A DNA stretch of 64,000 bases from an uncultured Chloroflexia bacterium (GTDB lineage Bacteria; Chloroflexota; Limnocylindria; Limnocylindrales; CSP1-4). The first letter of the stretch is position 1, and every line of letters starts with the position of its first letter. The notes under the pieces are model-generated. The model saw only the letters and a list, made by a program, of their open reading frames with translations, was not told the origin of the DNA and searched no databases. The stretch covers positions 157,599 through 221,598 of the forward strand of contig CAWCVO010000002.1 of the NCBI GenBank assembly GCA_963798955.1, in the 5' to 3' direction. Shown here piece after piece: positions 1,376 through 64,000 of the stretch. The position numbers and the translations under genes were made by a program.

Positions 1376-2376
1376 CTAGCGTTCGAAGCGGCGCTGCAGC
1401 AGGGCGTGGATGGAGATCGAGATCAGGATGATCGCGCCGTAGATGAACTGTGACCAGTAGCTGGTCAGGCCTGCGGCAACGATCCCGGCTCCAATGGCGC
1501 CGATCATGAATGCACCGATGAACGTGCCGTAGATGCTGCCGCGTCCGCCGAAGACGGATGTCCCGCCGACGAAAACGGCGGCCAGGCCGGGCAGGAAGAA
1601 CCCATCACCCAGGTTGCCCGGATAGAAGTTGACGACGCGCAGGGCGTTGAGCATGCCGGCGAAGGCCGCGGCCATACCGACAAGTACGAACAGCAGGATG
1701 CGCGTAAAACGGATCGGGATGCCCATCAACTGCGCCGCCTGGCGGTTGTCGCCGATGACGTATGCATTCTGTCCGACGCGGTGCCGGTTGAGGAGGATCC
1801 AGCTCACGATCGTGACCAGGATCAGCCAGTAGAACTCGCTGGGGATCCCGAAGATCTTGCCCGCCAAAAGGTTGTAGATATCTGAATCGCGCGTCGCCAC
1901 GAGCGCGGTCGTCTTGCCGTTCACGAGCGCCAGGGTCAGGCCGCGGTAGAGGAACTGGGTGCCGATCGTGACCACCAGTGCAGGCAACCCGATGAGCGTC
2001 ACGACCAGGCCGTTGAAGAGTCCCGCGAGTGCCCCCGTTCCCAGCGCGGCCACAACCCCCAGCTCGACGCTGCCCGTCGCGTTCCAGGCCCACAGGAAAC
2101 CGACCATGCCGAGCGCCATGATCGAAGGGAAGGAGAGGTCGATATCGCCGGCGATGATCAGCAACGTCAGAAGCATCGCCACGATTGCGAAGTAGGGCGT
2201 CGTCTGGGCGAACGAGAGGTATATCGCGCTGGACAGGAAGGTTCGCGGAGCGGCCACGATGAACACCGCCCAGAGCAGCAGGAAGGCGACGGTGATGCCG
2301 ATCTGCGATGCTGACGACGCCGCAACGGCGAGCGCGCCCGTACGGCGGCCAGAGTCGCGGGCGGCTGCTGCCGTGG

Positions 2377-6486: not shown

Positions 6487-7992
6487 ATGAAGCCGTTCGC
6501 GGACCTCGAAGCGTGGCTTGTCACCGGCAGCCAGGAGATGTACGGGGATACCGTCCTCGAGCAAGTCCGCCAACACGCGGGCCTGGTCGCCGAGGGGCTC
6601 GACGCTGCTGCTGCGATGCCGGTACGGATCGTCAGCAAGCCCGTGGTCAAGTCGCCCGAGAGCATCAGAGCGGTGTGCCTCGAGGCCAGTGCCAGTGACG
6701 CGTGCGTCGCCGTGATCGCGTGGATGCACACCTTCTCGCCGGCACGCATGTGGATCGCCGGGCTCCAGGCGCTCGACAAGCCTCTGCTCCATCTACATAC
6801 GCAGTTCAATCGCGACCTGCCGTGGTCGGCCATCGACATGGACTTCATGAACCTGAACCAGTCGGCGCACGGAGATCGCGAGTTTGCCCATCTGGCCACA
6901 CGCCTGGGTCGCGCGCGAAAGACAGTTGCCGGCCACTGGCAAGACCCGCAGGTGGTCGCGCACATCAGCACCTGGGCGCGCGCTGCCACCGCCTGGCACG
7001 AGGCGCAGCAACTTCGTGTGGCGCGCTTTGGCGACAACATGCGCCAGGTCGCGGTGACCGAAGGTGACAAGGTTGCCGCCCAAATCGCGCTAGGTGTAGC
7101 GGTCAACGGCTATGGCGTCAGCGAGCTGGCCGCGGCCGTGGAGTCCGTTCCGGAACGCGCTGTCGACGACCTGGCGCATACGTACGACCGTGACTACTCG
7201 GTCGTGCCGGTGCTCGGCCCGAACGGCGCGCGACGCGAAGAGCTCCGGATGGCGGCACGAATCGAGGCCGGCTTGCGCAAGTTGATCGGCGATGGCGGTT
7301 TTGGTGCCTTCACGGACACCTTCGAGGACCTGGACGGCCTGGCCCAGCTGCCCGGCATAGGCGTCCAGCGACTGATGGCCGACGGCGTGGGATTCGGTGC
7401 CGAAGGCGACTGGAAGACGGCAGTGATGGTCCGTCTCGTGAAGGTCATGGCGCGCGGACTGCCGGGCGGCACCAGCTTCATGGAGGACTACACCTATCAC
7501 CTCGATCCGGTGGCGCCCAAGATCCTGGGGGCACACATGCTCGAGGTATGCCCGACCATCGCGGCTGAACGGCCCTCGTGCGAGATCCACCCCCTGTCGA
7601 TCGGCGGCAAGTCGGATCCCGTGCGACTCGTTTTCACGGCCGCGCCCGGACCTGCAATCGTCGCTTCACTCGTGGATTTGGGCGACAGGCTGCGCATCGT
7701 GGCCAACGAGGTCGAGGTCGTAGCGCCCGACGAACCACTGCCGCGTCTGCCCGTTGCGCGGGCGGTATGGCAACCACGACCCGATCTGACGACCGCCGCG
7801 ACGGCCTGGCTGATGGCCGGCGGCTCGCATCACACAGTGCTCACCCAGGCGCTTGGAAGCGAGGCATTGGCGGACTTTGCCGAAATGGCGGGCATCGAGT
7901 TCCTGCTGATCGACTCGACGACGACACTCCACTCGTTCGCGAATGAAGTCCGCTGGAACGAGGCCTATTACCGCCTGGCACACCTGCGCTAG
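6487..7992 (+). CDS. araA: L-arabinose isomerase
   Basis: 501 aa, with N-terminal [21 protein letters not shown]… and [15 protein letters not shown] motifs typical of AraA. AGGGAG ribosome-binding site upstream. Confidence 0.9.
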
Positions 7993-9143
7993 GCGGCGGC
8001 CGAACTGGGCAGCAGCCCGGCACCGTTCACGGCCTCGACAACCAGGCAGCTGCCCTGGCGGCCCGTGCGTGGAGGGTAATCGGACGCGACGGCCTGGCGC
8101 AGCGACTCAACCGCGTCGTACCGCACAAGGTTGACGGTGCACCCGCCGAAGCCGGCGCCGGTCATTCGCGCTCCGACGACGCCCGGCACGGAGGTCGCGA
8201 TGTCGACCAGTGCATCGAGCTCGGCCGAACTTACGTCGTAGAGATCGCGCAGCGAGGCGTGCGACTCGGCAAACAGCCGGCCCAATGCGTCGAGATCCTC
8301 GGTTTCGAGCGCAGCCACGGCGCGAAGTACCCGTTCGTTCTCCTCGACGACGTGGCGGCACCGCCGTAGCGTCTGCTCGTCGAGCAGGTCGGATGCCGCG
8401 CCGAGCATCTCGACGGTCACGTCGCGCAACGAGGAGATGCCCCGATAGCGCGTTGCCAGCAGCCGCACGCCGCGCTCGCAGTCCTCGCGGCGCGCGTTGT
8501 ACTCGGATGTGGCAAGTCGGCGCGGCGCGTTGGTGTCAAGGACGACGATGGCGATGCTGCTTGGCAAGGCGACGGACCGATGCTCCAGGGAGCGGCAGTC
8601 CAGGAGTACCGCGGCACCAGCCTGGCCGTGAACCGCCGCGAATTGGTCCATCAGCCCGCAGGCCACCCCAACGTACTCGTTCTCGGCACGCTGAGCCAGG
8701 CGGGCGAGGTCCATGGGTGCCAACGGTGGCGGGACGGCAGAGCTGAGCGTCCATGCAGCGGCGAGCTCGAGTGCCGCGGAGGACGACAGACCCGAGCCGG
8801 TGGGGATGGTCGAGTCGACCACCGCCGCCACGGCGCGCGATGGCACGCCCGCGCGCGCCAGCCCCAGACCGACGCCGGCGACATAGTCGGTCCAGTCGCC
8901 CCGTCGAGGCCCGGGATCGCCGGCGTCGAACTCGCCGCGCGTCGCCTCCTGCAGCGACGACAGGATGACCCGGCTGTCGGTCGCCGGCCAAGAAGCAATC
9001 CAGGTTTCGAGGCTGATCGCGACCGGCAGCACCCAGCCCAGGTTGTAGTCGGTGTGCTCGCCGATCAGGTTGACCCGGCCGGGCGCGCGCACCAGGCGCA
9101 CCTGTTCCGGGGCGCCCTGCCGCGGCAGGCGCCAAGTCCGCAA
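7989..9143 (-). CDS. galK: galactokinase (GHMP kinase)
   Basis: [13 protein letters not shown] galactokinase signature and [17 protein letters not shown] motif. Confidence 0.85.
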
Positions 9144-9170
9144 CGGCGGCCAACAGCCGCTCCCGGCGAT

Positions 9171-10166
9171 TCACTCCAAAGCCAGTGGGTCAGTCGGCGC
9201 AAGAACCCGGAGCTCTGCTGCCGTTTCCTCCGGCAGGGTGTCATTGATGAACGCGCCCGCTCCGGCCTCCGACCCAGCCAGGAACTTCAGCTTGCTGGCC
9301 GTGCGATTGGGGGGGTAGAACTCGAAGTGGAGGTGGAAGGAGGAATGGTCGGCCATGCTCGTGGGGCGCTGGTGTACGGCCATGATGTACGGCAGCGAGA
9401 AGCCGAACAGCGCGTCGTACTTGAGCAGCACCGTCTTGAGCAGCCGGGCCAGGCCGTCGATTTCGTCTGCGTCGAGCTCGTGCAACCAGCCGACGTGGCG
9501 GCGCGGGGTGAGATGCACCTCGTATGGCCAGTGAGCGAAGAAAGGCACGCCGGCCAACCACGATTGTGTCTGCGCCACGACTCGCCGTCCATCGCCTATC
9601 TCCTGCTCGACGAGGCCACACCACAGGCACGCGCCGTGTTCTGCGAGATGGTCGGCCGCCGCCTGCGCCTCGCGCTCGATGATCGGCGGCAGATACGAGT
9701 AGGCGTAGATCTGGCCGTGAGGGTGGTGCAACGTCACGCCGATCTGCTTGCCTTTGTTCTCGAAGACGTAGACGTAGTCGATCTCCGGCCGGGCGCCCAG
9801 GACCAGGGTGCGGTGGGCCCAGACGCCGATCAGACGCCGCAGCTGCGTGAGACTCAGGTCGCTGGCGGTGGCATCGTGGCGCGGCGTGTACACCACCACT
9901 TCGCATACGCCAACCGACGGCGACACGGGGGTGAGTGGCGTCCCGTCGACTGTCGGCGGGCCTGGGTCAGGACGCAGCGATGGGAAACGGTTCTCAAAGA
10001 CGGCCACATCGAAGGTCGGGCGGTCGATCTCAGTCGGCGAAGCGGCTGAACGGGTGGGGCACAGCGGGCAGACATCCGCAGGCGGCAGGAACGTTCGCTC
10101 CTGGCGGTGGGTCGCGGTTATGACCCACTCGCGCAACTGCGGGTTCCAGCGCAGCTCAGACATCAT
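9171..10166 (-). CDS. galT: galactose-1-phosphate uridylyltransferase
   Basis: MMSELRWNP… CPLCP zinc motif and HPHGQIYAY (HxHxQ active site). The ORF-track N-terminal extension was trimmed to the ATG at 10166. Confidence 0.85.
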   Translation of the reverse strand: MMSELRWNPQLREWVITATHRQERTFLPPADVCPLCPTRSAASPTEIDRPTFDVAVFENRFPSLRPDPGPPTVDGTPLTPVSPSVGVCEVVVYTPRHDATASDLSLTQLRRLIGVWAHRTLVLGARPEIDYVYVFENKGKQIGVTLHHPHGQIYAYSYLPPIIEREAQAAADHLAEHGACLWCGLVEQEIGDGRRVVAQTQSWLAGVPFFAHWPYEVHLTPRRHVGWLHELDADEIDGLARLLKTVLLKYDALFGFSLPYIMAVHQRPTSMADHSSFHLHFEFYPPNRTASKLKFLAGSEAGAGAFINDTLPEETAAELRVLAPTDPLALE

Positions 10167-10360
10167 CCGGCCATGAGTAGTAGATGAGGTAGCGGCCGTC
10201 GGCCATGGCCACCAGCTCGATCGTCGCGTCGCGCAATATCGCGGCCACCGGCCCGTTGCCCTGCCCGCCAAACTCGTCCCGCTTAGGCCGGACGGAACCG
10301 GACGGCGGCGTACCGGCCGCACGCGCCGCCGGCGGTGGGCGACGGGCCTGTCGCGCCACG

Positions 10361-11779
10361 TTATTTGCCCGGTTCCCGGCGGTGGGCGAGGTATTCGAGC
10401 AGATCGAGCTTGGTGACGATGCCAACCGGGCGGTCGGCGTGGACCGCGACCAGCGCCGCGGCGCCGGTCGCCAGCAGGTCGAACGCGTCGTCGATCGAGG
10501 CGCCGGCGGGAATGGTCGGCAGGGAGCGGTCCATCACCTCGCCCGCGGTTCGCTCGACAGTCTCCGGCTTCAGGTACACCCGCTCGAGCAGGCCCTTCTC
10601 GCTGATCGAGCCCACGATGCCCTCGATGTTCTCGTCATCGCGCTCGGTCACCGGCATCTGGCTGATGCCGTAAAGCTGCAGCAGGTCGATCGCCGCGCCC
10701 ACCCGGTCGGTCGTCCGCGCCAGCACGAGCGGTGGCAGCTCGGCCGGCTGATGGCCGTTACGTAGTACGTCGGCCACCGTAACGCGCGGTACCGGCGAGC
10801 CGAGCAGTCCGTGCTGGCGCAGCCATTCGTCGTTGTAGAGCTTGGACAGGTAGTTGCGGCCGCCGTCCGGGAACAGCACGACGATGACCTTGCCCGGCGC
10901 CTGGCCGGCTTCGATCAGTTCTCGCGCGACGGTGAGCGTGGCCACCAGCGCCGTGCCGCTCGACTCCCCGGCGAGGATGCCTTCTTCGCGCGTGATGCGC
11001 CGCGCGGCCGCGAACGAGTCGCGGTCGGACACGCGCACCCAGCGATCGACGACCGACGGATCGTAGGTGCCGGGCAGGAAGTCCTCGCCGATGCCCTCGG
11101 TCAGGTACGGCCGCGCCGTGTCGCCCGACAGGACCGAGCCCTCGGGGTCCGCTCCGACCATCACGATGCCCGGATTTTGTGCCTTGAGGTAGTGCCCGAC
11201 GCCGGTGATCGTGCCACCCGTGCCGGACGCGATCACCACCTGCGTCACGGCACCGTCCGTCTGGCGCCAGATCTCGGGGCCGGTGGTGTTCTCGTGCGCC
11301 AGCGGATTGTTCATGTTCCAGTACTGGTCGGGCTGGAAGGCACCCGGGATGTCGCGCGCCAGGCGCTTGGCAACCGAGTAGTACGACTCGGGCGATTCGG
11401 GCGCCACGTTCGTCGGGCAGAGCACCACGTCGGCACCATAGGCGCGCAGCAGTGCCTGTTTCTCGGGCGATTGCTTGTCGGCCATCACGAACACGCAGCG
11501 GTAACCCTTGAGGGCGGCCGCGATGGCCAGTCCATGTCCGGTATTTCCCGACGTGGGTTCGATGATCGTGCCACCCGGCTTGAGCAGCCCGTCGCGCTCG
11601 GCGGCCTCGATCATGGGCAGGCCGATGCGGTCCTTGACCGAGCCTCCCGGACTGAGCATTTCAAGCTTGGCCAGGATTAGCGGCTGCTGCTCGGAAGGAC
11701 CCAGTTCACGGGTGACGTGCGTAAGGCGCACGAGCGGCGTGTTGCCGATCAGCGCGAGGATGTTCTCGGCGTACTCCAA
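10361..11779 (-). CDS. cystathionine beta-synthase (PLP fold type II plus tandem CBS domains)
   Basis: PGGSVKDRIG PLP-lysine motif and TSGNTGHGLA, with a C-terminal CBS pair. Confidence 0.85.
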   Translation of the reverse strand: MEYAENILALIGNTPLVRLTHVTRELGPSEQQPLILAKLEMLSPGGSVKDRIGLPMIEAAERDGLLKPGGTIIEPTSGNTGHGLAIAAALKGYRCVFVMADKQSPEKQALLRAYGADVVLCPTNVAPESPESYYSVAKRLARDIPGAFQPDQYWNMNNPLAHENTTGPEIWRQTDGAVTQVVIASGTGGTITGVGHYLKAQNPGIVMVGADPEGSVLSGDTARPYLTEGIGEDFLPGTYDPSVVDRWVRVSDRDSFAAARRITREEGILAGESSGTALVATLTVARELIEAGQAPGKVIVVLFPDGGRNYLSKLYNDEWLRQHGLLGSPVPRVTVADVLRNGHQPAELPPLVLARTTDRVGAAIDLLQLYGISQMPVTERDDENIEGIVGSISEKGLLERVYLKPETVERTAGEVMDRSLPTIPAGASIDDAFDLLATGAAALVAVHADRPVGIVTKLDLLEYLAHRREPGK

Positions 11780-13283: not shown

Positions 13284-13625
13284 GACGGGAGCTGATCTCG
13301 CTGTACGACTCGGCGACGAACACGCTCCGCACGCCGTATCGGCATCGATCAGGGCGTCCGCCAGGAGCATCGAGGAGCAGCCCCTCGGTGGGATTGATGG
13401 CGATCGTGATCAAGGAGCGCCGGGCACTTCGCCTGGGCACCAGCGCAGAGGCAGATGCGCTGGGCGCGCTCGTCTTCGGAGCTGACGATTACGAGTCATG
13501 GCTGGGCGTGCCGATCCTTGCCGGTGACCGCGTTCTCGGTGCCGTCTCTCTCGAGCGTGCCCCGAAGAACGCGTTCAGCGAGTCGGACGAGCGTCTGCTG
13601 GCGACCATCGCCGCGAACCTCGGGC

Positions 13626-19393
<5,768 letters not shown>

Positions 19394-19397
<4 letters not shown>

Positions 19398-57529: not shown

Positions 57530-60319
57530 GTGACGGCAGAGCTGACCGAGACCCGCGAGCTGGCGGAGTTCGAGCGCTTCACGCCGGATCAGGTCGAGCA
57601 GACCATCCCTGAACGTTTCGGCCGCCAGGTTGCGAAGTTCGCCGGGCGACCGGCGGTCATCGATGGCGGCAAGACATGGACGTACGGTGAACTCGCGGCG
57701 TCCGCGGCAAAGGTGGCCGGGGCGATCGCAAGCACGCGCGCCGGAGAGCAGGCCCGGATCGGTCTGCTCGGACTGCCCGGCGCCCAGTTGGTGGCCGCCA
57801 CCCTGGGCATTCTGCAGGCGGGCGGCACCGTCGTGCCGCTGGATCCATTGTTCCCCGCCCAGCGCCTGGCATCGATCGCAATGGACGCTGAGCTCGCCCT
57901 GGTCGTGGCCGGTGATGGCCTGACCGACATGGCCCGTGGGGCGCTCGGCCAGGATCTTGAGATCCTCGACCTGGCCGGCATCCTGTCCGCCCCCGGCGCA
58001 ATGAGTGCGTCGGATGGGAGCTCACTGAAATGTGCGACGGCTCGTGATCCGGCGTACCTGCTGTACACCTCGGGTTCTACGGGCGAGCCGAAGGGCACTC
58101 TGCACAGCCATCGCCAGGTGCTGCACCGCATCCGTGTCTACACCAACGCCGTGAGCCTCGATCCCCACGACCGCGTGCTGCTGATCGCCAAGCCCACGTT
58201 CGTGGCCTGGGTCACGGTCCTCTTCGGGGCGCTGCTGAACGGCGCCGCGGCATGCATCGTCGATCTTGCGGAGGTCGGCTTTGTGGGCCTGCGCGACCTC
58301 ATCGGCGAGGAGAACGTGACCGTCACCCACTCCACACCGACCGTCTACCGTGAGTTGGTGGCGACGCTCGCGGCCGACGAACGGCTGAGCGGCGTGCGGG
58401 CTGTGGCCCTCGGTGGCGAGGAAGTACGGGTGGCCGACTTCGATGCATTCCGGCAGCACTTCGCGACGGATGCCATTTTCGTCAACGTCATGGCCTCGAC
58501 CGAATCCTCGATCGGCCTGGTGTTCGTGGCCAACGCGACGAGCACCATCGCGGGCGCTTCAATTCCAGCCGGCTTTCCGGCCGAGGCAACCGAAGTCCTG
58601 TTGCTCGATGCCAGCGGAGAGCCGGCTGAATCCGTGGGCGAAATCGCCTTCCGCAGCCGCTTCATTCCCGCCGGCTACTGGAAGCGTCCCGAGCTGACCG
58701 CCGCCACGTTCCGTCACGACGCGGCCGATCCGGACCTGGTGACCTATCGCACGGGCGACCTGGGACGGCGTCGTGACGATGGTGCGTTCGAGTTCGCCGG
58801 GCGGCGCGACCGCCAGGTCAAGGTGCGCGGCATTCGCGTCGAGATTGCCGAGGTCGAGCAGGCCCTCGCGGCCCTGCCGCAGGTGCGCCAGGTCGCGGTT
58901 GAGGCGCACGTCATGAACGGTGAGACCGAACTCGTCGCGTACCTCGAACCGTCGGGGGCTGAATGCCCAGCGCAGCACGAGCTGTCACAGGCGCTGCGCA
59001 ACCGGCTGCCCGAATACATGCTTCCGAGCGCTGCCGTGTGGCTCGATCGGCTGCCACGGACCAGCTCCAACAAGATCGACCGCCGTGCGCTGCCCGACCC
59101 GCCCGTGCCCGGCGACCCAGCGCCGGCAGCGCAGGCGCGCGATGACGTTGAGCGCCAGCTCCTCGAAATATGGGAACGCGTGCTGGCGCGCCCGGTCGGT
59201 CTCGACGACAACTTCTTCGACATCGGCGGCAACTCGCTCAAGGCGGTCCGCCTGTGCGATCGGATATGGCGCGAGATGGGCCACCGCCTGGCGCCCTCTG
59301 TTCTGCTGGGCAGTGCCAACATCGGCCTGCTGGCCGAGCAACTGCGGCAAGGCGACGGGGTCGGGCCAAACGACCTCGTGCCCGTGCAACCGGCCGGGAC
59401 ACAGCGTCCGCTGTTCATCGTGCCCGGCGCGGGGTCGCGCATCCTGTACGTGCGCAACCTGGCTGTCCACCTGGGTCTCGACCAGCCGATCTATGCCCTG
59501 CACCAGCCCCCGAGCGGCCGGGACGGCCATGTCGAGCGACGCGTCGAGGACCTCGCCGCACATTACGTCACGGCGTTGCGCAAGGTTCAGCCGCACGGGC
59601 CGTACGATCTGGTGGGCATCTCATTTGGTGGCGTGGTGGCCTTTGAGGTCGCCCAGCAGCTGCTTGCCGCGGGGCAACAGGTCGGACTGCTGGCGCTGAT
59701 CGACAGCCGCCACCCCGCGCAACCGCAGAGGCACCGGAGCCTCCGGCCGCGGGCGCTGGCGCGTCGCGTCGGCAACCAGGCCGGCATCGTCCGCCGGTTA
59801 GGCCCGCGACGCGGCGCTGCATACCTGAGTGGTCGTTTGCGAATTCAGTGGACCAACTCGCTCGAAGCCGTACGGGAGAGGCTTGGGTCGCGCCTGCCCG
59901 GTTGGCTGGGCGGCGTGGTCCGTGACCCGTCACTGCAGTCCGAGCGCGACTGGCTCGAGGCCGATGGACGGGCGTTTGACCGCTATCAAACCGCGTCCTA
60001 CCCGGGCCGGATCACCTTCTTGTGGGCCGAACACAGCCCAACGCCGCCCGAGCATCGCTACTGGGCCGAGTTGGCGGCCGGCGGCTTCGATCCGCGAGGG
60101 GTGCCGGGTGGCCACTTCACCGCATTGGTCGAGCCGCTGGTCGGTATCACCGCCGGGGTGCTGAGAGATGCACTCGCCGAGGCGAGATCGACCGGTGCGC
60201 ACGGCAATGCCCTGGATCGGCCCGTCAATCAGCGAACGACGACGAGCGGGGCGCCGTACGCAATGGCGGCGAGCGCGCAGATCGGCAGCGGCCCGGACAC
60301 GCGCTCACCTGTACTGTAG
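57530..60319 (+). CDS. NRPS-like tridomain synthetase: adenylation, PCP, thioesterase (A-T-TE, no condensation domain)
   Basis: A3 LLYTSGSTGEPKG, A7 YRTGDLG, A8 GRRDRQVKVRGIRVEIAEVE, A10 SSNKIDRRAL, PCP FFDIGGNSLKAV, TE GISFGG. Confidence 0.85.
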   Translation: MTAELTETRELAEFERFTPDQVEQTIPERFGRQVAKFAGRPAVIDGGKTWTYGELAASAAKVAGAIASTRAGEQARIGLLGLPGAQLVAATLGILQAGGTVVPLDPLFPAQRLASIAMDAELALVVAGDGLTDMARGALGQDLEILDLAGILSAPGAMSASDGSSLKCATARDPAYLLYTSGSTGEPKGTLHSHRQVLHRIRVYTNAVSLDPHDRVLLIAKPTFVAWVTVLFGALLNGAAACIVDLAEVGFVGLRDLIGEENVTVTHSTPTVYRELVATLAADERLSGVRAVALGGEEVRVADFDAFRQHFATDAIFVNVMASTESSIGLVFVANATSTIAGASIPAGFPAEATEVLLLDASGEPAESVGEIAFRSRFIPAGYWKRPELTAATFRHDAADPDLVTYRTGDLGRRRDDGAFEFAGRRDRQVKVRGIRVEIAEVEQALAALPQVRQVAVEAHVMNGETELVAYLEPSGAECPAQHELSQALRNRLPEYMLPSAAVWLDRLPRTSSNKIDRRALPDPPVPGDPAPAAQARDDVERQLLEIWERVLARPVGLDDNFFDIGGNSLKAVRLCDRIWREMGHRLAPSVLLGSANIGLLAEQLRQGDGVGPNDLVPVQPAGTQRPLFIVPGAGSRILYVRNLAVHLGLDQPIYALHQPPSGRDGHVERRVEDLAAHYVTALRKVQPHGPYDLVGISFGGVVAFEVAQQLLAAGQQVGLLALIDSRHPAQPQRHRSLRPRALARRVGNQAGIVRRLGPRRGAAYLSGRLRIQWTNSLEAVRERLGSRLPGWLGGVVRDPSLQSERDWLEADGRAFDRYQTASYPGRITFLWAEHSPTPPEHRYWAELAAGGFDPRGVPGGHFTALVEPLVGITAGVLRDALAEARSTGAHGNALDRPVNQRTTTSGAPYAMAASAQIGSGPDTRSPVL

Positions 60320-60358
60320 CCAGCGGCCGGCAAGATCGGCCTGGCTCATTGCGGCGGG

Positions 60359-62698
60359 TCAGCAGGTCTGCACTGTGAACGCGGTCACGGCCGACGACGT
60401 GCTGACGTTGCCGTGCACGTCCGTGGCCCTGACACTCAGGCTCACGACGTAGGACGCGGTCCCCGGGATCGGCAGCCAGGCGATGGTATCCGTGGCAGTG
60501 CTCAGTGTGACCCGGTAGACGCCCGCGGACAGGGCCATCGCAACGCTGACGAGCGGTGTGCTGTTTTGGCGTTGATAGCGCAGCACGACGTTCTTCACGC
60601 CGGATGGGTCGACGACCCGCACCGAGACGACCACCGACTGGCCGAGTCCGGTGGTCGGGTCGCAGGTGGGCGCCGCGGTTACCCCGATCGTGTCCGGGTT
60701 CCATGACAGGCGGGTCACCCTGGGGCCGCTGGTATCGGGCGTCGGCGTCGGTGTCGGTGTGGGCGTGGGGGTGGGTCGCGCAGTCGGCCTGGGCGACGGT
60801 CGCGGCGTTGGTCTGGCCGTCGGCGGCGCCGTCGGAGTGGGCGTGGCGGTCGGAGGTACGCCAGGCGTGGCGGTGGGGAGCGTGGTCGGTGTTCCGCAAA
60901 CAGCGCCGATCGCACAGGGCGTTACGCCGGGCGAGCCGACCGGCTCACTCGCCCGCGGCGACTCACAGGACACCCCGGCGGGACATGGGGAGACCGCGAG
61001 ACCCTGGCTCTGGTCCGGACAACCCGTGACGACAGCGATGCCCGATGGGCAGTTCGGGGTCGGCGCCGGAGAAAGCATCGCGGACGCAGACGGATAAGGG
61101 CACGACGTCTGCTGGCCGGCCGCGTTAGCCGTGACACAAGGCTCGAATGCAGACGGCCCTTGACTGGCCGACGGCGTAGGCGTTCTCGGCAAGCCGCCCC
61201 ACACGACCACGGTGGTGAGCGCGATGGCCAGCCCAACGAGGAGGATCGGCCGGCGCAACCGCGGCCGGGACAGGGTCACCCGCGATGCCGGAGGTACCAC
61301 CCGCGCGATAGGGCGAGACAGTGGCGGCGGGAGCGCCCGCCGCTTGGGCTTCGAGCGGCGTGGTGGTTCGCCCTTGCCGGTCTCCATTCGCGCCGCGGCA
61401 TCTGCTGGTGCCTCCACCTCATCGAACAAGCCGGCCGCCGGCTCATCGAGAGTGGCGACGGCGCCGGTCGCTCGCCTGCCTGCGAACGCATTGAGCGGAG
61501 CGTCAAGGGCACCACTCGTCCATAGCCGCTCGAGCCGCCGCGCCGCCGAGCGAGGAACGCGTAGGAAGAACGAGCGGACGGGATGGGCGACGCGCAGGAC
61601 GGCCAGGTCCCACGTCACGTATTGAGGAGTCAGGCGGAGTGCTCCCCGCTCGCGTGTGACAAGCAGTGGCCGGGCGGCATTGCGCGCGCTCGTGGCCAAT
61701 CGCTCGCGAGGCACGAACGGATCCTCAGGTGCTTGCCGCTCGAGGGGTGTCGGCACGTCGCCCGCCACCACCGCGTCGACCAGCGTTAGCTCGGCGGGCA
61801 GGCCAAACCGTGCGGCGATCGGCCGAAGATGCGCCCACGTTGCCCGGAGGCGGTCGCCGCCCGTCTCCCAGGATCCGTCCGCGAGCTGCAAGCGCGCTGT
61901 CCGTCCGAGCGTGTACAGGTCGTCCCCGAAGGCGTCCCGAGCCACGAAGAGACCGGGCCGTTGCCAGGTGAAGCGCAGTCCGTGGCCGTCGAGCGGGACC
62001 GGCCCAGGGCTGGCCACGGACACCGGACCTGTGCCGTCGCCATCTCTGCCGTCTGCAGCCTTGCATGCATGCCACGCCGCGATGACACCGGCAAGCACGA
62101 ACAGGCTCGCGACCACCAGATCGGCCTGTGTCTCGAGGAACTCGGTGCCGATCTCGAGCCGCCGGTATCTTGGTCGCACGAGCAGGCCCGGGGAACTGCG
62201 CCGCTCGGCGACCAGCATGACCGCCGGCGCATACGTGACCGCGAACCGGCGCGCCAGGGCCCAGCCGTCGAGACCATCCGCGAATGCGTTGACATGAGTC
62301 GAATACCCGCGCAGCTCGGCACCGGTGGGCAGCCGGCGGCGCAGAGCCGACCGTTCAGCGAGGGCGTCCCGTGCGAGCCGGGTGGCGATGCCGGCCTGAA
62401 GCCTGCGCGGCGGCGTAGCGACTTCGGCGTGCGGACTGTCGACCGTCCAGACGGCCCCCGAGGCGACGATCCGCGCGTTCTCGTCGAAGGCGAAGCGTCG
62501 CAGTGCCCGGGTGGGAACGACGCGATCGATCAGGTCCTGGAAGTCGACTGTACCGCCGCGCAGCCAGACCGCGTACTCCTGCTCCAGGCCGGCGATCGCG
62601 GCCGGCCGCCTGGGTTGGCCCGCAGCGGACGCGAAGAAGCCACGGAAGACGGCATCGGGATCGTGCCGGAGGCGCCGGGCTGCCGGCGCAATAGCCAT
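60359..62698 (-). CDS. large membrane-anchored hypothetical protein: cytoplasmic N-terminal domain (~470 aa), one TM helix, Cys-rich segment, Pro/Thr linker, C-terminal Ig-like beta domain
   Basis: TM helix PILLVGLAIALTTVVVWGG, (TP)n linker and a beta-rich C-terminus. The N-domain has a GLEQEYAVW motif faintly resembling carboxylate-amine ligases, which is not confirmed. Confidence 0.6.
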   Translation of the reverse strand: MAIAPAARRLRHDPDAVFRGFFASAAGQPRRPAAIAGLEQEYAVWLRGGTVDFQDLIDRVVPTRALRRFAFDENARIVASGAVWTVDSPHAEVATPPRRLQAGIATRLARDALAERSALRRRLPTGAELRGYSTHVNAFADGLDGWALARRFAVTYAPAVMLVAERRSSPGLLVRPRYRRLEIGTEFLETQADLVVASLFVLAGVIAAWHACKAADGRDGDGTGPVSVASPGPVPLDGHGLRFTWQRPGLFVARDAFGDDLYTLGRTARLQLADGSWETGGDRLRATWAHLRPIAARFGLPAELTLVDAVVAGDVPTPLERQAPEDPFVPRERLATSARNAARPLLVTRERGALRLTPQYVTWDLAVLRVAHPVRSFFLRVPRSAARRLERLWTSGALDAPLNAFAGRRATGAVATLDEPAAGLFDEVEAPADAAARMETGKGEPPRRSKPKRRALPPPLSRPIARVVPPASRVTLSRPRLRRPILLVGLAIALTTVVVWGGLPRTPTPSASQGPSAFEPCVTANAAGQQTSCPYPSASAMLSPAPTPNCPSGIAVVTGCPDQSQGLAVSPCPAGVSCESPRASEPVGSPGVTPCAIGAVCGTPTTLPTATPGVPPTATPTPTAPPTARPTPRPSPRPTARPTPTPTPTPTPTPDTSGPRVTRLSWNPDTIGVTAAPTCDPTTGLGQSVVVSVRVVDPSGVKNVVLRYQRQNSTPLVSVAMALSAGVYRVTLSTATDTIAWLPIPGTASYVVSLSVRATDVHGNVSTSSAVTAFTVQTC
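60715..60900. repeat. GT-rich microsatellite-like low-complexity DNA, (GGYGTS)n, encoding the Pro/Thr linker on the minus strand
   Basis: ggcgtcggcgtcggtgtcggtgtgggcgtgggggtgggt… read directly from the sequence. Confidence 0.5.
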
Positions 62699-62734
62699 GC
62701 TGGTTCGGGAGCGGGGACCGGAGCTCCCGGCTGG

Positions 62735-62944
62735 CTAGGGCTTGGGGGGCTCCTTGCGACTGATCAGGTCCTCGGCAGTCCGAAGCGGTGCCCCGCCACC
62801 GGCTTGCGACGTGCCGCCCGTGAGGGCGCTGTCGGACGCGGTGGCCGCCGCGCTGGCCACACTGGGAGCACGCGTGAGGACATCATTGGGCACCGCTCTG
62901 GTGACTGGCGACGGCGCCTGCAATTCCATGCCCTTCTCACCCAT
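62735..62944 (-). CDS. small protein (69 aa), MGEKGME… paralogue 2
   Basis: GGAGGT ribosome-binding site with a 6-nt spacer. The first 30 nt are near-identical to the neighbouring small ORF. Confidence 0.5.
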   Translation of the reverse strand: MGEKGMELQAPSPVTRAVPNDVLTRAPSVASAAATASDSALTGGTSQAGGGAPLRTAEDLISRKEPPKP

Positions 62945-62957
62945 CTCGTGACCTCCC

Positions 62958-63167
62958 TCAGCCGAACAGTTTGTGGATGCCCAACGGATCGAGGACATCC
63001 TCGACGATCTCGCCCACGTCCGGCCCAGATGAGGGCGGCTGCGGCTGGTTGGGCGGCCCGCTGTTTGCGAGCGGCGTGCCCATCGCCGCCAGATCAGCCT
63101 CGTGCTGAGCTGGCGCCACAGCCACGTGTTCGCTCGACCCGCCGGTGTCCATTCCCTTCTCGCCCAT
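62958..63167 (-). CDS. small protein (69 aa), MGEKGMD… paralogue 1
   Basis: GGAGGT ribosome-binding site with a 5-nt spacer. It shares the start motif and is exactly the same length as paralogue 2. Confidence 0.5.
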   Translation of the reverse strand: MGEKGMDTGGSSEHVAVAPAQHEADLAAMGTPLANSGPPNQPQPPSSGPDVGEIVEDVLDPLGIHKLFG

Positions 63168-63276
63168 CACGGACCTCCACACCAAGGCGCCGAGTGCATC
63201 GGATCTGGAACCCGGCACGATCATACCAATGCGTGATTCGCCTACCTGCACGCCGACGGCGTGCGCGGCCGTCGGG

Positions 63277-64000
63277 TCACAGAGGGAGGGTGAAGCGAAC
63301 GACGGTCTCCGCACTGGGTTGACTCTCGGCGGTGATCGTACCGCCATGCGCATTCACGAGATCCTGGGCGATCGGCAACCCGAGACCCGTGCCCGAGGAG
63401 CCAGGCCCCTTGGCGAACCGCTCGAACACGTGCGGCAGCAGGTCAGGCGGAATGCCGCTGCCGTCATCGCTCACGGCGACCTCGACGGCCGACGGCGGGC
63501 TGCCGGCAACCGACGCGCCCACCTGCACGTGCCCTCCGGCGGGCGTGTGGCGAAGCGCGTTACTGATCAGGTTGGCCAACACCTGGCGAATGCGCGAGGC
63601 GTCGAGGGTGACCACCGGCAGCCCCTCCGGCAGGGCGCTTACGAGCGACACCTGGGCAGTCTTGGCGCGCGGCTCGAACGAGGCGACCGAGTCGCGGATG
63701 AGGCCGGCCAGGTCGGTCGGCTGGCGGTCGAGCGTCAAGCTGCCGGCGTCGGCCAGCGCGACGGTGCGTACGTCGTCGATGAGCTGCTCGAGCGCTCGGG
63801 TCTGTTCGTGGATCGGCGCCAGGTGCTCCCGGTCGGCCGGGTAGACGCCGTCCTCGATCGCCTCCAGCTGAGCCTCGATGACCGAGAGCGGCGTGCGCAG
63901 CTCGTGGGCGACGTCGGCGAGGAACGTGCGGCGCCGTTCATCCTGCTGGGCAAGGCGCGAGCTCATGCGGTTGAAGGCACGTCCCAGCGTGCGCATCGGC
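63277..64000 (-). CDS. sensor histidine kinase, C-terminal part (HAMP end, HisKA, HATPase_c); the 5' end lies beyond the window
   Basis: H-box LADVAHELRTPLSVI; N/G boxes LISNALRHT… DDGSGIP… GTGLGLPIAQ. Confidence 0.8.
   Translation of the reverse strand, partial: PMRTLGRAFNRMSSRLAQQDERRRTFLADVAHELRTPLSVIEAQLEAIEDGVYPADREHLAPIHEQTRALEQLIDDVRTVALADAGSLTLDRQPTDLAGLIRDSVASFEPRAKTAQVSLVSALPEGLPVVTLDASRIRQVLANLISNALRHTPAGGHVQVGASVAGSPPSAVEVAVSDDGSGIPPDLLPHVFERFAKGPGSSGTGLGLPIAQDLVNAHGGTITAESQPSAETVVRFTLPL

Follow-up and report, generated by a model that had tools for sequence, protein, structure and literature searches.

Small proteins that share an N-terminal MGEKG tag are encoded beside a predicted membrane-anchored carboxylate-amine ligase in Chloroflexota and Actinomycetota

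The 64-kb stretch of DNA from an uncultured Limnocylindrales bacterium analysed here (the window; 68% G+C) contains two adjacent small open reading frames (ORFs), orfA and orfB, whose products begin with the same residues. As judged from sequence conservation, these genes form a three-gene operon with a downstream gene for a membrane protein of 779 amino acids (aa), and the M-G-E-K-G with which both products start is a peptide tag carried by the partners of this protein's family across Chloroflexota and Actinomycetota. We are highly confident that the two genes are real and that the tag functions as a peptide motif linked to the large protein, which we call the enzyme. Structural modelling indicates that the cytoplasmic domain of the enzyme belongs to the carboxylate-amine (glutamine-synthetase-like) ligases, a superfamily in which it represents a new, undescribed family.

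The minus strand of the window was read and its ORFs were listed. Both orfA (63167..62958, minus strand) and orfB (62944..62735, minus strand) consist of 69 codons and a stop, in agreement with the first-pass annotation, which had been made from the sequence alone. A Shine-Dalgarno hexamer, GGAGGT, precedes each start codon, with a spacer of 5 nt for orfA (63178..63173, minus strand) and 6 nt for orfB (62956..62951, minus strand), again as annotated. The tag codons specify M-G-E-K-G-M-D in orfA (63147..63167, minus strand; read from the sequence and the orfA alignment) and M-G-E-K-G-M-E in orfB (62924..62944, minus strand; read from the sequence). A gap of 13 nt separates the two genes, and 36 nt lie between the end of orfB and the start of the enzyme gene. 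The 5' ends of both ORFs fit ATGGG(C/T)GAGAAGGG(A/C)ATGGA, which translates to MGEKGM(D/E). They had been described as near-identical over about 30 nt, but the resemblance is shorter, at 18 of the first 20 nt. The two products are otherwise unrelated, as had been claimed: their BLASTP alignment is confined to the first seven residues, MGEKGM(D/E). When up to three mismatches are permitted, the motif ATGGGYGAGAAGGGMATGGA occurs in the window only at the orfA and orfB sites (0.02 occurrences expected), and no further ORF in the 64 kb starts with (M)GEK or (M)EKG.

Beyond the window, loci were gathered with the enzyme as the sole query, yielding 80 metagenomic loci plus homologue loci from metagenome-assembled genomes (MAGs) and isolates, 88 in total. 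These came from alignment-based scans; a contig scan with the whole 779-aa protein matched patterns, none of which was confirmed. We defined a tag ORF as one of at least 35 aa that starts with (M/V)GEK or (M/V)EKG, and 81 of the 88 loci have at least one. Among the 80 metagenomic loci, 70 ORFs start with (M/V)GEK, 66 of them on the strand of the enzyme gene, whereas permuted forms of the tripeptide (KEG, KGE, GKE and EGK) are found 0 to 2 times after a start codon. Another 19 ORFs carry the variant tag (M/V)EKG(N/M/I), and one locus has (V)AEKGM. Most tag ORFs (84) are upstream of the enzyme gene on the same strand, where they usually end 12 to 50 nt before it; 17 are downstream and 6 are on the opposite strand. 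The invariance of Glu and Lys in the tag follows by construction from the search pattern, but the Gly after GEK is independent of that pattern and is present in 66 of 75 cases in the GEK class. Representatives in Actinomycetota include MGEKGNALDGG... in Knoellia and MGEKGNWAPGP... in Blastococcus, and a distant locus in Limnocylindria has three successive tagged genes, whose products start with VGEKEI..., MGEKQI... and MGEKEI.... An all-against-all BLAST comparison of ORFs from 90 loci revealed no other conserved neighbour genes. Literature searches on "MGEKG" returned nothing relevant, and those on PafA-like or amidoligase systems returned only known pupylation work; neither the motif nor the enzyme family was described in any paper found. 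One candidate, an ORF starting MGEKVGAV... at position 7336 of locus L008 (minus strand), was rejected as a false positive that lies inside an AMP-binding gene.

Two observations bear on where the motif lies and on the level at which it is selected. An SD-like (Shine-Dalgarno-like) sequence precedes 79 of 90 tag ORFs, compared with 12% of random positions, and the motif is therefore truly N-terminal. In addition, codon use within the tag varies: Gly is encoded by GGT (40), GGC (31) or GGG (4), Glu by GAG (57) or GAA (18), and Lys by AAG (51) or AAA (24), with GAA and AAA used in AT-rich loci. Such synonymous variation indicates that selection acts on the peptide, and not on an RNA or DNA element. 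If the common start were instead a nucleotide-level element, the trace of a recent local duplication, or a feature of chance GC-rich ORFs, the match of 18 nt in 20 and the identical Shine-Dalgarno hexamers within the window would be accounted for. Across the 90 tags, however, synonymous positions are free, and the motif is kept across phyla on unrelated proteins. Rfam yielded only sub-threshold chance matches in the gene-pair region, and both ORFs have conserved homologues. These readings, to which we assign almost no probability, are effectively refuted. The shared regulatory 5' element proposed in the first-pass annotation is contradicted by the free codon variation and the lack of an Rfam match, and the recombinational duplication it also proposed is unneeded because only constrained codons match. 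Its concern that the ORFs might be chance reading frames is put aside by the conserved homologues of both. A promoter and terminator scan of positions 60000-63500 was uninformative.

The unique tagged proteins, 90 in number, range from 51 to 359 aa, and each tagged locus encodes 1 to 3. Clustering divides them into about 30 groups that have the tag as their sole common feature, and most are acidic, disordered and rich in Gly, Ala, Pro, Ser or Thr. Pfam matched none of ten representatives. Small tandem genes with a common N-terminal motif and a divergent remainder are also what would be expected of precursors of RiPPs (peptides that are made on ribosomes and modified after translation), in which MGEKGM would belong to the leader and which would give rise to modified peptides for secretion; a nonribosomal peptide synthetase (NRPS)-like gene that lies nearby on the opposite strand (described below) could be taken to point the same way. 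We regard this explanation as very improbable. Tagged proteins can be as long as 359 aa, and most are disordered and of low complexity, no conserved protease, transporter or known RiPP enzyme occurs in the 88 loci, the partner enzyme resembles PafA, Dop and GCS2, the NRPS-like gene is not kept in related loci, and the long conserved block of orfA proteins is C-terminal rather than in a leader. The first-pass annotation had suggested a leader-type recognition motif of precursor peptides. The idea of a recognition motif survives, now on about 30 unrelated families, but that of a RiPP precursor or leader is not supported.

Motifs with Trp, of the form (A/S)(T/S)WD....(Q/E)W.(D/E), recur in many tagged proteins, as seen in L020 (4488-4694), L036-L038, L041, L043 and L069, and also in L009 (1601-1978), L021, L022 and L032. 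One 68-aa family with such a motif (MGEKGTKGWAMIQ.D.WRSL.D.GW.GD...) has its gene on the downstream side of the enzyme and not upstream. From its sequence, the motif is possibly a shared binding module.

Both small genes of the window are members of conserved families in Limnocylindria (Chloroflexota), a conclusion drawn from alignments and gene order. The first-pass annotation had proposed a homologue search, and this returned 27 homologues of orfA (67-78 aa, 47-99% identity), of which those with names derive from Candidatus Limnocylindrales/Chloroflexota MAGs. In their alignment the start MGEKGM is invariant and Asp7 nearly so; a variable middle zone, rich in Gly, Ala, Pro and Gln and with insertions and deletions, is followed by a conserved C-terminal block, SSGPDxGEIVxDxLDPLGIHKLF, and then by G or E. 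These two final residues are about equally frequent after the invariant HKLF. The orfA product is acidic (isoelectric point 4.3), and its AlphaFold2 (AF2) model (mean predicted local distance difference test score, pLDDT, 63) is disordered apart from residues 51-59, which form a short helix. Its only two lysines, K4 of the tag and K66 of HKLF, are both invariant in the family; K66 might serve as a further functional site, such as an acceptor in ligation.

The orfB product is rich in Ala, Ser, Thr and Gly. A word-index search was too sparse to assemble its family, giving a single close homologue (P0092), and we used positional homologues instead. In every related locus fetched, an ORF starting MGEKG(M/I)E is directly 3' of the orfA homologue, and positional homologues occur in at least 12 loci (positions seen in L001-L006 and L010-L019). 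An alignment of 13 of these shows that M1-G5, E7 and P66-P67 are invariant and K68 nearly so, with a C-terminal motif of PPK followed by G, P or S. The gene order orfA-orfB-enzyme is kept in L002, L004-L006 and L010-L019; in L001 and L003 the enzyme is upstream of the pair. Gene calls missed the enzyme of L001, and tblastn places it upstream of the pair; in the enzyme region of L001/L003 (5725-6945, plus strand) the source annotation had called minus-strand genes. In L002 (8493-10723) the homologue of the 779-aa protein is broken over three frames (8493-9158, 8677-9696 and 8921-10723), which reflects either frameshift errors in assembly or a pseudogene. The products of orfA and orfB are small, intrinsically disordered, cytoplasmic proteins.

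The third gene of the operon (60359..62698, minus strand) encodes the single-pass membrane protein. A membrane-anchored protein downstream and a histidine kinase upstream had both been annotated, correctly. The 779-aa protein consists of a ligase-like domain (aa 1-440; 61379..62698, minus strand) whose core has the carboxylate-amine ligase fold, a predicted transmembrane (TM) helix (aa ~481-504; 61187..61258, minus strand; from a hydropathy scan and the sequence), a Pro/Thr-rich linker and a C-terminal domain. An Arg/Lys-rich stretch comes before the TM helix, and by the positive-inside rule the ligase domain would be cytoplasmic and the C-terminal domain extracytoplasmic. Longer members of the family have fn3, He_PIG or InlB-type immunoglobulin (Ig)-like modules in the C-terminal position. 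A word-index search with the first ~440 residues gave 64 homologues, none with a precomputed Pfam domain, and enzyme homologues include those of the cultured actinobacteria Knoellia, Oryzobacter and Blastococcus. In an exhaustive profile search of 1.84 billion clusters (50% identity), 899 representatives were found at E <= 1e-3 and 563 at E <= 1e-30. Judging by these searches, the enzyme family is discrete, mid-sized and unannotated.

In Knoellia and Blastococcus (L007, 7092-9311, minus strand; L008, 4899-6004, plus strand) a tagged 103-aa gene is followed by a separate gene for a single-pass membrane protein of 262-277 aa, and Knoellia (L007) also has a lipoprotein-like protein of 365 aa. This layout parallels the fused TM helix and ectodomain of the Limnocylindria enzymes. 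The TM proteins show no sequence similarity to the fused C-terminal modules, however, and a "Rosetta-stone" argument is therefore unsupported at the sequence level.

An AF2 model of the ligase-like domain, based on 48 homologues, has a pLDDT of 90.2 and a predicted template modelling (pTM) score of 0.89. When it was compared with the PDB by Foldseek, the best match was the PafA-Pup complex (4bjr, E 1.6e-8), followed by five Dop structures (E about 1e-7) and then by YbdK/GCS2 (1tt4 and 1r8g, E 4e-5 to 7e-4), plant glutamate-cysteine ligase (GCL) and glutamine synthetase (GS). On this model, the closest relatives of the enzyme are PafA and Dop, and then GCS2/YbdK. The model also shows an accessory alpha/beta subdomain of ~90 aa after the core (aa ~345-440), which in standalone actinobacterial enzymes is N-terminal to the core instead.

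Iyer et al. defined the superfamily by five features (PMC2588565). The GhExE signature on core strand 1 separates the ligases from guanido kinases; in addition, strands 2 and 3 bear acidic residues, strand 4 bears [HD]x[NH], and strand 5 and the loop before it bear Arg (PMC2588565). We mapped these features by motif and by strand order in the model, and not by residue-level superposition, with the following result. The signature corresponds to G37-L-E39-Q-E41 (62576..62590, minus strand), the Mg2+/ATP site of the superfamily; these residues lie on the model's first long strand (E35-46), and in alignments of 48 and 20 homologues G37, E39 and E41 are invariant and position 38 is hydrophobic. The acidic residues would be the invariant D87 (strand 83-87) and E92 (strand 90-94). 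The conserved H135-x-N137 is on strand 4 (128-139), with H135 invariant and N137 replaced by Ser in some members. The invariant R175/R177 are on strand 5 (171-177), and R180/E182, beyond that strand, are invariant as well.

What the enzyme might do with the tag can be proposed by analogy. Characterised superfamily members phosphorylate a carboxylate, in most cases the gamma-carboxylate of Glu, and transfer the acyl moiety to an amine, and PafA joins the C-terminal Glu of Pup to a lysine of its target (PMC2588565, PMC8599861, PMC3511204). The tag consists of a Glu beside a Lys, is flanked by Gly and is near the end of the chain, and for this reason activation of its Glu is the most economical hypothesis. 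With moderate confidence, we propose that the tag is the recognition and reaction site of the enzyme, and that its Glu is activated with ATP and linked through an amide bond. The enzyme would bind the free N-terminal tag, phosphorylate the gamma-carboxylate of the tag Glu with ATP, and join the activated Glu to an amine at the inner (cytoplasmic) face of the membrane. The likeliest amine would be the epsilon-amino group of a lysine, either on a target protein or in another tag, and in the latter case orfA and orfB would become cross-linked head to head. Small or lipid amines are alternative acceptors. Such chemistry would resemble pupylation, with the reactive handle moved from the C-terminus to the N-terminus.

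Methionine aminopeptidase cleaves Met off when Gly or Ala follows, and leaves it in place when the next residue is Glu. Removal of the initiator Met would yield mature G-E-K-G, and the variant tags would yield M-E-K-G or A-E-K-G. We infer that MGEKG, MEKG and MAEKG all mature to x-E-K-G, where x is G, M or A and Glu is residue 2. The common position of Glu in the three mature forms points to a role for its distance from the free N-terminus.

Several results weigh against activation and ligation of the tag Glu. The partners are very diverse, with 1 to 3 per operon, and look like clients rather than one universal modifier. The tag Glu is internal (residue 2 or 3), whereas that of Pup is terminal and has a free alpha-carboxylate, and substrate recognition must therefore differ. 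The extracytoplasmic Ig-like modules are not accounted for. Seven of the 88 loci have no tag ORF, and L028 has the EKG motif at internal positions and in duplicate: a short ORF that lies immediately before the enzyme gene (~1690-1960, plus strand) starts with MANGSGFEKGTGTE... and has a second copy, ...GAEKGNQLE, inside. The L028 ORF could have a mis-called start, be a processed pro-form, or be an exception to the N-terminal rule. Sequence comparison also fails to join the enzyme to ligases of known chemistry. The 779-aa protein has no match in Pfam at E <= 1, including Pup_ligase (PF03136) and GCS2 (PF04107); a profile search of PDB sequences with the enzyme found low-complexity matches only, and no PafA or Dop; and hhalign of enzyme alignment A4 with E. 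coli YbdK gave a probability of 0.2%, with only the GhExE strand aligned. NCBIfam and PADLOC also returned no match, and the first-pass statement that no described family is recognised holds for all three annotation sources. Since these sequence-level searches were negative, the link to known families is only through structure comparison.

Two further explanations accept the partnership and assign the tag another role. The tag might be an amine acceptor, with the enzyme activating a free carboxylate, such as L-glutamate, as do GCS2 and GCL. The carboxylate would then be transferred to the epsilon-amine of Lys4 or to the N-terminal alpha-amine, in a gamma-glutamylation or similar acylation. This is unlikely, in our estimation: it leaves the invariance of the Glu unexplained, all tagged partners are cis-encoded proteins, as with Pup, and no glutamate-metabolism genes are linked to the enzyme in the loci compared. 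The tag might otherwise be a non-covalent signal for docking, localisation or turnover (a degron), while the enzyme acts on something else. Genetic linkage demonstrates partnership and not chemistry, the variable ectodomains (fn3, He_PIG, InlB-repeat) hint at envelope-related roles, and the diversity of partners is as expected of clients. On the other hand, it would be an unlikely coincidence for an invariant five-residue motif with exactly the two residue types that PafA-type enzymes join to occur beside an enzyme with a complete catalytic signature, and none of the surrounding genes is conserved as a further candidate substrate. We consider a purely non-covalent signal decidedly unlikely.

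A bolder extension of the proposal that the tag Glu is activated is tentative, and we think it somewhat doubtful as a whole. It holds that Chloroflexota and Actinomycetota possess a second, independent prokaryotic system of protein conjugation, a "reverse Pup". In such a system a membrane-anchored ligase that is PafA-like and novel in sequence would covalently join the Glu gamma-carboxylate of an N-terminal G-E-K-G handle, carried by disordered proteins, to its acceptor. That acceptor would be a lysine of membrane-located targets or the Lys of another handle, and in the second case the products would be head-to-head dimers or polymers linked by isopeptide bonds.

Two genes that flank the operon in the window are probably separate from the tag system. 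A histidine kinase gene (63277..63996, minus strand; Pfam HisKA and HATPase_c) is upstream of orfA and runs off the window. Five related loci (L001, L002 and L007-L009) have other neighbours, and the histidine kinase is probably outside the system because it adjoins the genes here but not in those loci. The NRPS-like gene (57530-60319, plus strand) encodes a standalone 929-aa protein with AMP-binding, PP-binding and thioesterase domains (A-PCP-TE), and lies convergent to the ligase gene, facing its 3' end. The same five loci lack it, and for that reason it is probably unrelated to the tag system. Elsewhere in the window, a very long ORF of 1980 aa is present at 13455-19397 (plus strand).

The best-known bacterial case of a GS-fold ligase that attaches a small ribosomal protein to other proteins is pupylation. 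The genes described here are a concrete candidate for a sister system, with an x-E-K-G N-terminal handle, many tagged proteins and a membrane-tethered enzyme. From its sequences, the system would be a GS-fold protein-modifying ligase with cis-encoded small-protein partners, and could prove more distinct. The enzyme family, for which there is no Pfam or NCBIfam model, and its partners are currently annotated as "hypothetical". Gene callers miss or mis-start the genes for tagged small proteins, and the five-residue tag provides a simple rule by which dozens of small-protein families can be found and given their correct starts. Because members occur in cultured Actinomycetota (Knoellia, Oryzobacter and Blastococcus), the chemistry is directly testable.

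Among known systems, graspetides and microviridins resemble the one proposed here in that an ATP-dependent enzyme acts on ribosomal peptides and forms side-chain amides between Glu/Asp and Lys. Their enzymes, however, are of the ATP-grasp type rather than GS-like, and the tagged proteins far exceed their peptides in size and diversity and are found without leader-core organisation, a protease or an exporter. In the LPXTG-sortase and PEP-CTERM-exosortase pairs, a very short invariant terminal motif on otherwise unrelated proteins co-occurs with a dedicated membrane-associated enzyme. The tag and its enzyme follow the same logic, but the motif is N-terminal and cytoplasmic, the tagged proteins have no signal peptide, and the enzyme has the fold of an ATP-dependent ligase, not of a transpeptidase or protease. 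The GCS2/YbdK-type carboxylate-amine ligases (PF04107) and glutamate-cysteine ligases have no significant sequence match to the enzyme. GCS2 enzymes use free amino acid substrates, and lack cis-encoded tagged partners, a TM anchor and an ectodomain.

Pupylation (Pup, PF05639; PafA/Dop, PF03136) differs in the position of the handle, which is a C-terminal GG[EQ] in Pup and an N-terminal (M)GEKG here, where the Glu is not the terminal residue. Pup is one conserved modifier, whereas the partners here belong to ~30 unrelated families, with 1 to 3 per operon. Pup has a bihelical core and ends in G[EQ], while the orfA and orfB products end in ...HKLF[G/E] and ...PPK[G/P/S] and do not match the Pfam hidden Markov model (HMM) of Pup. 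PafA and Dop have a C-terminal domain of ~70 aa that is unique to pupylation enzymes, and Dop has the Dop-loop; the ~90-aa accessory subdomain here, which is found at either end of the core, may differ from that domain. No proteasome, Mpa/ARC or Dop genes are conserved in linkage with the enzyme in the 88 loci, nor do they appear in the gene lists of L001, L002 and L007-L009. In both systems a small disordered protein is encoded beside a GS-fold carboxylate-amine ligase, and the partner has an invariant Glu, flanked by Gly, near a terminus of the chain. Disorder that is interrupted by a short conserved helix close to the C-terminus is common to the orfA product and Pup. Membrane-anchored Pup ligases are known (PMC2588565), and PafA and Dop are the best structural matches to the enzyme.

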